Part shown: positions 4,899-24,903 of the stretch, piece by piece
Layout: each line of letters begins with the position of its first letter
Numbering within the stretch: the stretch's first letter is position 1
Source: Folioceros fuciformis
Taxonomy: Eukaryota
DNA length: 39,931 nt
Assembly (NCBI GenBank): GCA_049999805.1
Contig: JBNGIO010002643.1
Coordinates: forward strand, 1-39,931
Direction of reading: 5' to 3'
Translations under genes and position numbers: made by a program
Notes under the pieces: model-generated
Database searches by the model: none
Told to the model about the DNA's origin: nothing
The model's input: only the letters and a program-made list of their open reading frames with translations

Positions 4899-5555
4899 GG
4901 CTGCCTCCTGTGGCTGTTGCAAATCCGAACAGAACAGCAAACGGAAGAATCCCCGACACCAGAACACATACTCGTGGGACAACGCTCACATCGGATGCAC
5001 ATATATAGACAATAACTGCAGTCAGGTCTAAAACAACACACACATACTCTCGGTTAAAAAGGCATGTCCACCGGCTGCTACAGGTTGCCCTGATGCGCTG
5101 ACAGGGACCTGGTGCTGGTGGGCTCCGGCATATAGGGACACACCCACGAGAGGGCTCAAAGAAGAAGCCCTAGACACCGGAGTCCTTGTTCAATTTGGTT
5201 TTCCTGTTTTTGGCAGAAATCGTGGTTCCATCACCGCACATTGGATCTGCGCACCTACCCGGCCTGCAGGTTCTGGAAACTCTTGCTGCTTTCTGTTGCT
5301 GCAGGCAGGTGTGGAAGGAATGACCAAGAGCTGTGAGTTTGCCTGTAAGGTGTGAGGAAAATCTCTGTGGTGCGCTTAGATGGGGTGTTGGTGGCATTCT
5401 TCAGGCTGCCCTAGCTGTCTCAGCCCACTTTGCGGGGGCCAGCAGCTGGGGCTCCACTCAGGGAGTGGCTTCTGCTAGCTGGTTCAGGAAGGCAGTGATA
5501 GATAGGGTGGGGGAGTGTGTTAAAAACATTTTGTGTTCGGCACCAGTGAGTCACC

Positions 5556-6758
5556 ATGGGGATAGTGGAGAAAATCAAGGAGATCGAGGCCGAAATGGCC
5601 CGAACTCAGAAGAACAAGGCCACGGAGTACCACTTGGGCCAGCTCAAAGCTAAGATCGCCAAGCTGAGGACCCAGCTGCTGGAGCCGCCGAAAGGGTCGA
5701 CTGGAGCGGGGGATGGTTTCGAGGTGACTAAATTCGGGCATGGTCGGGTTGCGCTGATAGGGTTTCCTAGTGTAGGGAAGTCCACATTGCTGACCCTTCT
5801 TACGGGGACGCAGTCCGAAACAGCAGCGTATGAGTTCACAACCCTGACATGCATTCCTGGGATTATACATTACAACGATGCAAAGATACAACTTCTTGAT
5901 CTGCCGGGTATTATTGAAGGAGCTTCGGAGGGGAAAGGTCGTGGACGGCAGGTTATTGCAGTGGCCAAGTCCTCTGATTTGGTTCTCATGGTTTTGGATG
6001 CTTCCAAGAGTGAGGGTCATAGGCAGATTTTGACCAGGGAGTTGGAAGCTGTGGGCTTGCGGCTGAATAAAAGTCCTCCTCAGATTTACTTCAAGAGGAA
6101 GAAGACGGGGGGCATTTCCTTCAACACCACAGTGGCCCTCAACCATGTGGATGAGAAGCTGTGCTACCAGATTCTCCACGAGTACAAGATCCACAATGCT
6201 GAAGTTCTGTTCAGGGAGGATGCTACAGTCGATGACCTGATTGATGTTATCGAAGGAAACCGGAAGTACATCAAATGTGTGTACGTCTACAACAAGATCG
6301 ATGTTGTGGGGATTGACGATGTTGACAGATTAGCCCGCCAGCCCAACTCCATTGTTATCAGCTGCAATCTCCAGCTGAACCTAGACAGACTACTGGCCAA
6401 GATGTGGGACGAGATGGGCCTGGTGCGTGTTTACACGAAGCCGCAAGGTCAGCAACCTGACTTCTCTGAGCCGGTCGTTCTTTCTACTGACAGAGGAGGC
6501 TGTGCGGTGGAAGACTTCTGCGATCATATTCATAGGAGTTTACTGAGAGATGTGAAGTACGTACTGGTCTGGGGGACCAGCTCCAAGCATTACCCTCAAC
6601 GGTGTGGGACTCAGCATGTTTTGCACGACGAAGATGTGGTCCAGATAGTGAAGAAGAAGGAGAAGGAGGAGGACGGTGGAAGGGGAAGATTCAAGTCCCA
6701 CACTACAGGCCCTGCCAGGATTTCTGACAGGGAGAAGAAGGCTCCTCTTAAGACTTAG
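5556..6758 (+). CDS. DRG2: Developmentally regulated GTP-binding protein (OBG family, DRG2-like); coding region uninterrupted
   Basis: 400-aa ORF with the DRG N-terminus EIEAEMARTQKNKATEYHLG, G1 GFPSVGKST, YEFTT, DLPG, NKID and a C-terminal TGS domain (HVLHDEDVVQIVKK). Confidence 0.95.
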   Translation: MGIVEKIKEIEAEMARTQKNKATEYHLGQLKAKIAKLRTQLLEPPKGSTGAGDGFEVTKFGHGRVALIGFPSVGKSTLLTLLTGTQSETAAYEFTTLTCIPGIIHYNDAKIQLLDLPGIIEGASEGKGRGRQVIAVAKSSDLVLMVLDASKSEGHRQILTRELEAVGLRLNKSPPQIYFKRKKTGGISFNTTVALNHVDEKLCYQILHEYKIHNAEVLFREDATVDDLIDVIEGNRKYIKCVYVYNKIDVVGIDDVDRLARQPNSIVISCNLQLNLDRLLAKMWDEMGLVRVYTKPQGQQPDFSEPVVLSTDRGGCAVEDFCDHIHRSLLRDVKYVLVWGTSSKHYPQRCGTQHVLHDEDVVQIVKKKEKEEDGGRGRFKSHTTGPARISDREKKAPLKT

Positions 6759-23154: not shown

Positions 23155-23968
23155 CTCATTGTGCCAGGAAATGACCAGGTCCGTCGTCCAGGCATCCTTG
23201 CAAAGCTGAAAAGGCCGGGAAGTTGGGAAGGCAAAGCGTCCGACGCGCAAGTTTACAAGTATCTAGAGCCCATGTTAAGAAACGGACGAAGGGAATCAGG
23301 GTGCGGCATACAAACAGAATAATGGCCTGCAAAACCACAAAACTGAGCCAGCATTTGTACAGCGCTGCTCAAATTCCAGAATCTTTGATGGCAAACAGGC
23401 AGCCGCCGGGTCACACGCGCAAATGCAGACGTGAGCCTCCAGAGGCTAGAGTGGGCCACCCTTGAGCTGCTGGAAGAAAAGGACATGCAAGCTGCACCAG
23501 ACACATTTCGCAGTTTGTAAAATCCTCAAAATTCCTTCACTAGTGCCATCTTCAGCAAGGATGCTTCCAGTCTGGCAGCCAGATCACCATGTTTGCCTGA
23601 AACAACTGATTACACTGTTGATGAATTCGATGCTTTAGATGGACAGACTCGGCTGGAGCCTCACGGTCAAAGCCTAGGCTAGACGTGGCTGCAGGAACGA
23701 ATGTCTCCAGAATCTTTCAGGGGAACAGAAAGCGCACAAGTGGTGCTACAGACTTGCGACAGACAAGGACAACGCGAAGCTTCGTTCTTTCTGCGCTGCG
23801 TTCAATTGAGCTTCAGGATAGTGGTACAACGTTCTACTGCACAGAAAGGTGGAACAACTTATTCCCCGTGGCACTGTGCAGACAGAACGGGTTCACATTG
23901 AAGCGAATGGATTCCGAGCCCGATGATCGCTAGCTACTCAATTGCGCCCTGGATTCGATCCTCACTTG

Positions 23969-24718
23969 TTAAGACTGGAAGCCGGCTGGCTTCTGCACCA
24001 AGAAAGCTACGACCTGCACCTGCCTGACGTTGTCAAAGCCGATGACCCTGATGAAGGAATTGGGGTAGGCCTTCCGGGCCTCCTGCACCTCCCGCAGCAC
24101 CTGGCCCGCGTCGTTGGCGCCGAAGAGAGGAAGCTTCCACAATGTGTAGTAGCGCCCGTCGTAGTAGCCGGGGCCCGCGTAGTTGGTCTTCGACACCGAA
24201 GACACCTGCGGGGGGGCTCACCTCATTATTGCAAAGTTGCGAGCACCATTGTGCCACGGGCAGCGTGTAGAACACAACGTATGTACACCACATTCCACCC
24301 ATGTGATGGGCCTACCGTGTCGAACTCGACGGCGGGGATCAGGTTCTTCCTGATGAGGAAGCTCAGCTGCTTGTAGATCTGGTCGTCAGTGAGGGGAGGC
24401 AGGTACGACAACGTCTCGAACTTGAGGTTGGTGTTGGGGTTCACCACCTGCGGCCACAGGAGTAGGGGCATCAATGTAAGGCGCAGCGCATGGCCGGCAG
24501 CAAGCTTGCAATTACGGGTGTCGTCATACAAGGAAGGCATTCGTGCGGCTGCCATTGGAGACAGTCTTGGCGGCGAGCGAGGAGGTGCCGATTCCGGCTC
24601 CCAGAGGCAGAGGAGCGACGCGCAGGCCGGTGGTGGAGGAAGCAGCCACTGCGCTGGGCCTGGACACGCTGCATGACGCTGTAGCCAGAGAGGAGGAAAC
24701 GGTGGCGAGGGCGGCCAT
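23969..24718 (-). CDS. RBCS: Rubisco small subunit precursor, divergent Cys/Met-free mature chain; exons 24718-24530, 24447-24316, 24205-23969
   Basis: The transit peptide ends ...[10 protein letters not shown]. Core motifs are [27 protein letters not shown] and [13 protein letters not shown]. It has two phase-0 GT-AG introns at typical RbcS positions and strongly GC-ending codons. Confidence 0.96.
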
Positions 24719-24824
24719 AGCTGCTCTTTCACCCGACACAATTCGGCTGTAGCGTCACTGTGGGTTGCTGCCTCTCAGACGCTTAGATACTCCCATACGG
24801 CAGCTGTTAAGTAGGTTGCGTTAC

Positions 24825-24903
24825 GGTCCAGATGCAGCGCATCTGGGACCAGGTGCGATGTATGCATGCTGCCTTGTACTTTGTTAATTTGTTACATGTA
24901 CCT
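24825..24903 (-). promoter_or_regulatory. Putative EIL/SLIM1-type elements upstream of RBCS: a UPE-box-like palindrome (24825-24850) and ATGTACCT (24896-24903)
   Basis: Gene-strand AGATGCGCTGCATCTGGACC matches the UPE-box consensus, recalled as AGRTWCATTGAAYCTRGACR, at 15/20 positions. ATGTACCT fits the EIL site AYGWAYCT. Confidence 0.4.

Follow-up and report, generated by a model that had tools for sequence, protein, structure and literature searches.

Among the closest described systems are replacement isoforms in which an abundant protein has been depleted of its sulfur-containing residues, as exemplified by the cpc3 phycocyanin of cyanobacteria, the sulfur-depleted glycolytic isozymes of yeast and LHCBM9 of Chlamydomonas. 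Such isoforms are defined both by their induction under sulfur limitation and by the sulfur-rich counterpart whose place they take. No other single protein makes up as large a pool in the green cell as Rubisco. A passage in PMC6681370 describes the enzyme as having a high content of sulfur amino acids and as a main source of nitrogen and sulfur during starvation. The Rubisco small subunit (RbcS) gene described here resembles the replacement isoforms in composition only, in that conserved Cys and Met residues have been removed from an abundant protein. An earlier note on this DNA, made from the sequence alone, knew of no sulfur-depleted isoform of land-plant Rubisco, and our own search agrees: neither a sulfur-free nor a sulfur-poor RbcS is described in the main texts searched. 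The same literature holds no description of the sulfur-poor RbcS of leafy liverworts discussed below. The terms ‘rbcS’ and ‘Jungermanniopsida’ occur together there in a single plastome review, and in a review devoted to RbcS (PMC9833052) the word ‘cysteine’ is absent and ‘methionine’ appears once.

The gene is located on the minus strand of Folioceros fuciformis contig JBNGIO010002643.1, within a stretch of 39,931 nucleotides that was analysed as a whole and that we call the window. Its three exons run from an ATG at position 24718 to a TAA stop codon at 23971..23969, and our script-built gene model yields a coding sequence of 558 nt for a precursor of 185 amino acids (Table 1). The range 23969-24535, to which the earlier note referred, is the segment coding for the mature chain. 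No second copy of RbcS is present within the window, and scans of the window for Rfam families and tRNAs gave no matches.

Table 1. Features of the RbcS gene, given in coordinates of the window.
Feature	Position	Strand	Description
5' UTR (minimum extent)	24719..24770	-	Spliced contig from run X2 reaches 24770; at least 52 nt
Exon 1	24718..24530	-	Start codon, predicted 61-aa Ser/Ala/Thr-rich transit peptide and mature residues F, L
Intron 1	24448..24529	-	82 nt, GT..AG, phase 0, GC 0.60; between mature residues 2 and 3
Exon 2	24447..24316	-	44 aa, VVNP...IPAVEFDT; PF00101, 32.7 bits
Intron 2	24206..24315	-	110 nt, GT..AG, phase 0, GC 0.56; after mature residue 46
Exon 3	24205..23969	-	78 aa and TAA, ends QKP; PF00101, 75.3 bits
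3' UTR (minimum extent)	23800..23968	-	X2 contig extends to 23800; at least 169 nt

By its profile matches, the encoded protein is a member of the green-type form I Rubisco small subunit family (PF00101). Exons 2 and 3 match the Pfam profile RuBisCO_small at profile positions 1-34 and 37-97, respectively, with the scores listed in Table 1 (cut-off, 27), and exon 1 matches no Pfam family, which fits a transit peptide. Searches with the two exons matched 40 and 44 RbcS sequences in the PDB; exon 2 aligns with these chains at chain residues 5-45, and the best match of exon 3 is 9pvb chain M (111 bits). The leader, predicted to be a transit peptide, ends in a manner that resembles other streptophyte RbcS, and both introns occupy the two positions that are conserved in RbcS genes. 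The mature start was assigned by homology, with F aligned to the canonical Met1, and this gives a chain of 124 residues. In family, length, core motifs and gene structure, the gene is like canonical plant RbcS, and we consider it very probable that its product is a functional small subunit.

The composition of this protein is what sets it apart. The precursor contains a single Met, at residue 1, and a single Cys, at residue 16, both of which belong to the transit peptide. Given this arrangement, wherever beyond residue 16 the leader is cleaved, the resulting chain is sulfur-free, and this state is thus independent of the exact cleavage site. The 124-residue chain has no Cys, no Met, no His and one Trp, and nowhere in 169 residues has a new Cys or Met appeared. 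Among the matches listed, 152 other RbcS have a median of nine Cys plus Met (5th-95th percentile, 5-11) and none has zero. An exhaustive search of 1.84 billion representatives returned 371 proteins with E ≤ 0.001, and the best 150 of these 371 were examined; the exon-3 segment is covered by 93 of them, none of which lacks Cys and Met in that segment (minimum 1, most 4-7). Tryptophan is similarly extreme, since the 143 RbcS outside the sulfur-poor clade described below carry three to five residues and none has fewer than three. Histidine is a different matter, in that 49 of the same 143 proteins also lack it, and the eight Tyr residues of the chain compare with a median of seven. Our recount thus confirms the composition given in the earlier note.

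To compare this protein with its family column by column, we used an alignment of RbcS from the homologue searches after leaving out 13 duplicated, fused or partial models (P0011, P0012, P0014, P0021, P0022, P0026, P0028, P0037, P0049, P0124, P0133, P0135 and P0162), and a column was called conserved when one residue occurs in at least 70% of the 144 other RbcS. None of the seven conserved Cys or Met columns is kept, compared with 56 of the 67 other conserved columns (Fisher p=1.8e-5). Relative to 34 named non-seed streptophyte RbcS, in which Cys plus Met has a median of 9.5 and a range of 5-11, the corresponding figures are 0 of 7 and 57 of 66 (p=7e-6). The loss of Cys and Met is, on these alignments, directional and non-random.

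The places affected are among the best known of the protein. Canonical states in the 144 RbcS are Cys at position -1 (94%), Met1 (97%), Trp4 (96%), and the Cys of PC(L/I)EF (92%), the Met of LPMFG (90%) and the Cys residues of FGC (97%), EEC (90%) and QC (72%). At these eight places the chain has A, F, V, A, L, A, A and V, in the same order. These percentages bear out the consensus motifs that had been named for the C-M processing site, PCLEF and QC, which lie between 72% and 97%. Furthermore, both Met residues around WKLP have become L, the QC(M) pair has become V-V, and three of the four conserved Trp residues are replaced (W4V, W38L and W67Y). Every one of these replacements is also found, as a minority state, in functional RbcS from other lineages: among the 144 proteins, five have A at the FGC Cys, 13 have L at the LPMFG Met, 10 have A at the EEC Cys and 28 have V or I at the QC Cys. 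Rice RbcS, for example, carries A in place of the EEC Cys and L in place of the QC Cys. We conclude that the observation is real, extreme and non-random.

The gene also appears to be transcribed and correctly spliced. Four public runs (X1-X4) contain sequence of the locus, and their contigs were aligned on 23600-24900. Run X2, which carries the organism label of the probable source and whose RNA nature is our guess, provided one contig of 779 letters that has zero differences from the window and covers 23800-24203, 24314-24445 and 24528-24770. This contig lacks two stretches of 110 and 82 letters, each bounded by CT..AC on the plus strand, as expected for precise removal of both predicted introns. 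One contig from X4 also bridges intron 1, and the exon-exon joints are absent from the DNA runs X1 and X3. We take the X2 contig to be a spliced transcript, although a processed DNA copy is possible in principle. Contigs of this kind indicate the presence of a transcript and carry no ranking of expression. Runs X5-X9 contain next to no words of the locus. Three short pieces in X4 match only 23994-24045 and then diverge into continuations that resemble the C-termini of chlorophyte RbcS. Because of these continuations, we rejected the pieces as paralogues and take them to come from other organisms in the sample.

Codon usage points in the same direction. GC at third codon positions is 0.84 in the coding sequence and 0.89 in its mature part, compared with a GC content of 0.45-0.51 in the flanks and with the intron values in Table 1. 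A bias so far above the local composition would be of the kind seen in highly expressed genes. In the 580 nt upstream, we found no noteworthy I-box, G-box or GT1 element, nor the GAGAC core of sulfur-responsive elements; GAGAC-type motifs are derived from angiosperms and their absence carries little weight.

Several simple explanations can be set aside on these grounds. Decay to a pseudogene is rejected given the intact frame, the exact splicing, the 56 of 67 conserved non-sulfur columns that are kept and the strong codon bias. The earlier note had argued against decay on much the same basis, and its reading of intact splice sites and of a strong third-position GC bias holds up against the transcript joints and the values given above. 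GC pressure is rejected as the cause: second codon positions of the mature RbcS have a GC of 0.34, and F, Y, I, N and K are abundant in the chain. Depletion across the proteome is rejected on the single example (n=1) of a neighbouring DRG GTPase reading frame in the same window, which has ordinary numbers of Cys, Met and His (7, 5 and 13, respectively, in 402 amino acids).

The protein is not unique in kind, because the leafy liverworts appear, from their sequences, to have a milder form of sulfur-poor RbcS. A word-based search with exon 3 gave nine proteins, and a profile made from five of them was used to obtain the best 120 of 1347 matches (down to 204 bits); a Marchantiopsida profile was used in the same way for the best 120 of 2298 (down to 231 bits). 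Mosses, ferns, algae and angiosperms are represented in these sets by canonical RbcS. A sulfur-poor clade emerged that comprises 8-10 clusters (P0001, P0003, P0004, P0005, P0006, P0010, P0013 and P0036, plus P0052 and P0192). Its members carry A(-1), F1, V4-N5-P6, A/T41, L73, A76 and V/I111, begin with NAF-NVVNP, include IP(A/T) and QVQ(V/I)VSF, and contain one to six Cys plus Met and three or four Trp. Calypogeia fissa, a leafy liverwort, is the only named source, and the other members are unnamed JGI/Logan sequences (P0001, P0003, P0004, P0006, P0013, P0036, P0052 and P0192). A scan of metagenome contigs with a profile of this liverwort clade produced 84 pattern matches, of which none was confirmed.

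All of the states listed for the clade are present in the Folioceros protein. The two share the A-F processing site and the VVNP start; in both, A or T stands where PCLEF has its Cys, LPMFGC is replaced by LPLFGA, and QVQC by QVQ(V/I)V. They also have the same two intron positions, as judged from the read-through model P0052. However, the clade is only 63-65% identical to the mature chain, and its members keep their few Cys and Met and most of their Trp where the Folioceros protein has zero and one, respectively. Marchantia and Riccia RbcS are canonical and sulfur-rich. Sphagnum (the P0002 cluster) and an unnamed, bryophyte-like group represented by P0027 are intermediate, with five or six Cys plus Met; P0027 has the strings LPLFGA, EEAKK and QVQVA and a single Cys, whereas both of these groups keep the canonical C-MQVW start, the PC(L/I)EF Cys and four Trp. 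Among the matches listed, the nearest RbcS are 63-67% identical to the Folioceros protein and include Sphagnum-like proteins, the liverwort clade, Ceratodon and Mesotaenium. Given these values, the lineage of the gene is not closely sampled.

Calypogeia fissa has the one annotated genome within this clade. Its four RbcS found (CAM6093149.1, CAM6087673.1, CAM6103177.1 and CAM6081862.1) are on four contigs, are each annotated as ‘unnamed protein product’, and are all sulfur-poor, with 2, 3, 5 and 6 Cys plus Met. No canonical RbcS of this species occurs in the best 120 of 1347 matches or in the best 120 of 2298. This constitutes moderate evidence that C. fissa is without a canonical RbcS and, if so, a sulfur-poor RbcS can be the only type in a genome. 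The sulfur-rich counterpart that defines replacement isoforms is accordingly not found in C. fissa among the matches listed. The earlier note had proposed that the isoform is swapped in under sulfur starvation, a proposal that is left unsupported by these four sulfur-poor copies, and had itself counted equally sulfur-poor paralogues throughout the lineage as evidence against its idea. Among the matches listed, this is what we see in C. fissa, which is a possible relative, and only there.

The placement of the Folioceros protein depends on which columns are considered. In a tree built from all columns, the Folioceros protein is sister to the sulfur-poor liverwort clade (SH-aLRT 87; 86.8 in a second tree). 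Its branch of 0.59 is comparable to the root-to-tip lengths of about 0.3-0.6 in the liverwort clade, which gives no sign that the gene is a rapidly evolving side copy. A further tree of 57 rows and 106 columns was made after removal of 16 Cys/Met/Trp columns and the first residues. In this trait-free tree, the liverwort clade remains intact (100/98) and the Folioceros protein is placed weakly (86/75) with Mesotaenium and a similar unnamed sequence. Neither placement, with the liverworts (p 0.37) or with Mesotaenium (p 0.48), is rejected by AU tests on the same trait-free columns. It is mainly the trait columns that tie the protein to the liverwort clade. Several of the states concerned are widespread: A or T at residue 41, L at 73 and A at 89 are common in streptophyte algae, clade states also occur singly in streptophyte algae and ferns, and Spirogloea has the identical string TNAFLV at its processing site. 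As the AU tests favour neither, descent from a purge shared with liverworts and convergence cannot be told apart from these sequences.

A T-type identity was also considered. According to the part of PMC9833052 that concerns the RbcS-T/OsRbcS1 cluster, T-type RbcS form a divergent lineage that is said to include bryophytes and ferns and that alters Rubisco kinetics. The likeness here is that the best PDB match resembles a T-type-like tobacco protein: over the aligned stretch, 9pvb chain M equals the mature part of Nicotiana tabacum P0090, a T-type-like ‘MKTW’ RbcS. However, T-type proteins have a normal sulfur content, and the mature chain of P0090 carries five Cys, five Met and four Trp compared with zero, zero and one. 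Angiosperm T-like RbcS (Nicotiana, Amborella and Jatropha) form a supported clade of their own in both trees (95; 98/88), with the Folioceros protein outside it, and identity with this cluster is rejected for that reason. The wider ‘T-type’ sensu Pottier et al. 2018 may take in the Folioceros protein, given that the deep nodes are poorly supported.

We slightly favour the view that this gene encodes an ordinary small subunit of a streptophyte, one that is made constitutively and has become fixed in a sulfur-free and Trp-poor form through a long directional replacement. Taken separately, constitutive use rather than induction by starvation seems probable to us, and we give selection rather than drift an even chance of having shaped the composition. 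The nuclear gene would give rise to a precursor whose transit peptide carries the sole Met and the sole Cys, and import followed by cleavage at the predicted site would release a small subunit without sulfur and with one Trp that presumably caps the RbcL8 core. Slow replacement at highly conserved sites, with Cys changing to Ala, Met to Leu or Phe, and Trp to Val, Leu or Tyr, would have led to this state. The saving might amount to some 9 sulfur atoms per small subunit and some 72 per L8S8 complex. The latter number is roughly a third of the sulfur of the holoenzyme if the RbcL count is the usual one. At the same time, the subunit would be free of those side chains that oxidation and UV damage most readily.

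As the driver of the Cys and Met purge, our first choice would be sulfur economy in the most abundant protein of the cell, given that Trp was retained in the liverwort clade when Cys and Met were lost. For the extra loss of Trp, our first choice would be photo-oxidative or UV hardening. More tentatively, and with considerable doubt, we suggest that selection on elemental or oxidative cost purged all sulfur and three of the four Trp residues from an ordinary small subunit, either independently of the liverwort purge or as its extreme end.

An alternative is that hardening was the whole cause, such that selection removed Cys, Met, Trp and His from an abundant stromal protein, perhaps in an exposed or desiccation-prone habitat, and that the saving of sulfur was a by-product. 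The Trp replacements speak for this idea, since the loss is peculiar to the Folioceros gene and gives weight to oxidation resistance because sulfur sparing does not explain it, and the mature chain is free of His as well. Gerhardt, Wilson & Greenberg 1999, cited in PMC3801088, reportedly link Trp photolysis to a UV-B photoproduct of Rubisco. However, Tyr is also oxidisable and has not been reduced, and one of the lost Trp residues even became Tyr. A lack of His is common among RbcS, and the liverwort clade, which retained its Trp as it lost Cys and Met, fits a sulfur-specific pressure in that lineage. We consider hardening unlikely to be the whole explanation.

Still less probable, in our judgement, is a neutral history in which a constraint was relaxed, be it on the processing or methylation of the N-terminal Met or on thiol chemistry, after which the affected sites drifted to similar hydrophobic residues with the help of compensation in RbcL. 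All of the replacements are conservative and each is tolerated elsewhere, and the loss of a feature such as Met1 methylation could free several sites. Met1 of RbcS is N-methylated in a moss, according to bioRxiv 10.1101/2024.06.11.598444, and the functional significance of this modification is called unclear in a passage of PMC9833052. Because Met1 is lost here, the methylation found in moss cannot occur as such. Nevertheless, drift does not predict that all seven conserved sulfur positions would be lost with most of the other conserved columns kept, nor that no new Cys or Met would appear elsewhere in the precursor.

Least probable of all is a conditional isoform, by which an ordinary sulfur-rich RbcS would be exchanged for the sulfur-free copy when sulfate is scarce: the zero Cys and Met and their directional loss are how such an isoform should look, but nothing in the sequence indicates conditional use (including the upstream region, whose want of a GAGAC core counts for little), the only RNA-like assembly found for the organism contains the transcript, the C. 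fissa copies listed are sulfur-poor without exception, and the states at most sulfur-free positions are old, shared or recurrent and not the marks of a recent specialisation.

If the fixed, constitutive small subunit that we favour is borne in mind, the gene has implications beyond its own lineage. A natural RbcS without Cys or Met and with one Trp suggests that several conserved features are dispensable together, namely the C-M processing site, the N-terminal Met, the PCLEF, FGC, EEC and QC cysteines, and Trp4, Trp38 and Trp67. The protein is a ready test case for the roles of those residues, and it could guide the design of small subunits with a lower sulfur demand or with resistance to oxidation and UV. 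It is possibly the first example from the plant lineage of elemental sparing built into Rubisco, and the sulfur-poor RbcS of leafy liverworts allow this question to be approached comparatively. If the reading based on selection is true, a sulfur-thrifty Rubisco would be a strategy that recurs naturally within the plant lineage and has so far escaped notice.

The RbcS gene lies among several other predicted coding regions in the window (see table). The 436-aa ORF is separated from the RbcS 5' UTR by a spacer of ~430 nt, and its match to the BD-FAE alpha/beta-hydrolase family is weak and sub-threshold, scoring 21.8 bits where the cut-off is 26.8. The plus-strand exon-sized frames yielded an aquaporin (MIP) match at 36.7 bits. 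They also matched the C-terminal portion of a GDSL lipase at 20.4 bits, which is under the cut-off for that profile. These frames probably represent two multi-exon genes that have the DRG gene on one side and RbcS on the other. The closest clusters to the DRG/OBG-type GTPase frame are assigned to Streptophyta by Atlas placement. Genes of this type are intron-rich as a rule, and this copy, which lacks introns, may be a retrogene.

Other features in the window that accompany the RbcS gene
Feature	Position	Strand	Description
DRG/OBG-type GTPase ORF	5550-6755	+	402 aa, intron-less; domains MMR_HSR1, MMR_HSR1_Xtn, TGS
Exon-sized frames	19380-19673 and 22420-22692	+	Profile matches to MIP and, below cut-off, to GDSL lipase
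ORF, 436 aa	25196-26506	-	Adjoins RbcS gene on upstream side, same strand

Among the RbcS models in the databases, several are artefacts, namely P0011 (Marchantia Mp_4g06040), P0012, P0014, P0028 and P0052/P0319. These are of two kinds, in which either tandem copies have been merged in one protein or genomic contigs have been translated through introns, and they push profile scores up. The public sequencing run X4, which carries a different organism label, includes pieces identical to the window RbcS transcript as well as RbcS fragments that align at 23994-24045 and have chlorophyte-like continuations. Therefore, the sample seems to be mixed.

Divergent RbcS paralogues are present in Riccia fluitans and R. 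sorocarpa (P0125, P0126), with 61% identity to the main Marchantia type. In these proteins, Trp38 is replaced by Cys and the Cys of the QC motif by R.

Leafy liverworts carry a distinct, sulfur-poor RbcS clade whose members have 1-6 Cys+Met and a NAF-NVVNP start, and we found no description of this clade in the literature. It includes P0005, P0314, P0010 and P0315 from Calypogeia fissa, together with P0001, P0003, P0004, P0006, P0013, P0036, P0052 and P0192. Among the matches listed, the sulfur-poor type seems to be the sole RbcS type of C. fissa. Close to Sphagnum there is also a bryophyte-like group (P0027, P0029 and P0048) that retains the canonical MQVW start, carries LPLFGA, EEAKK and QVQVA, and has one Cys. 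This group is an intermediate sulfur-poor state in a lineage other than the leafy-liverwort clade.
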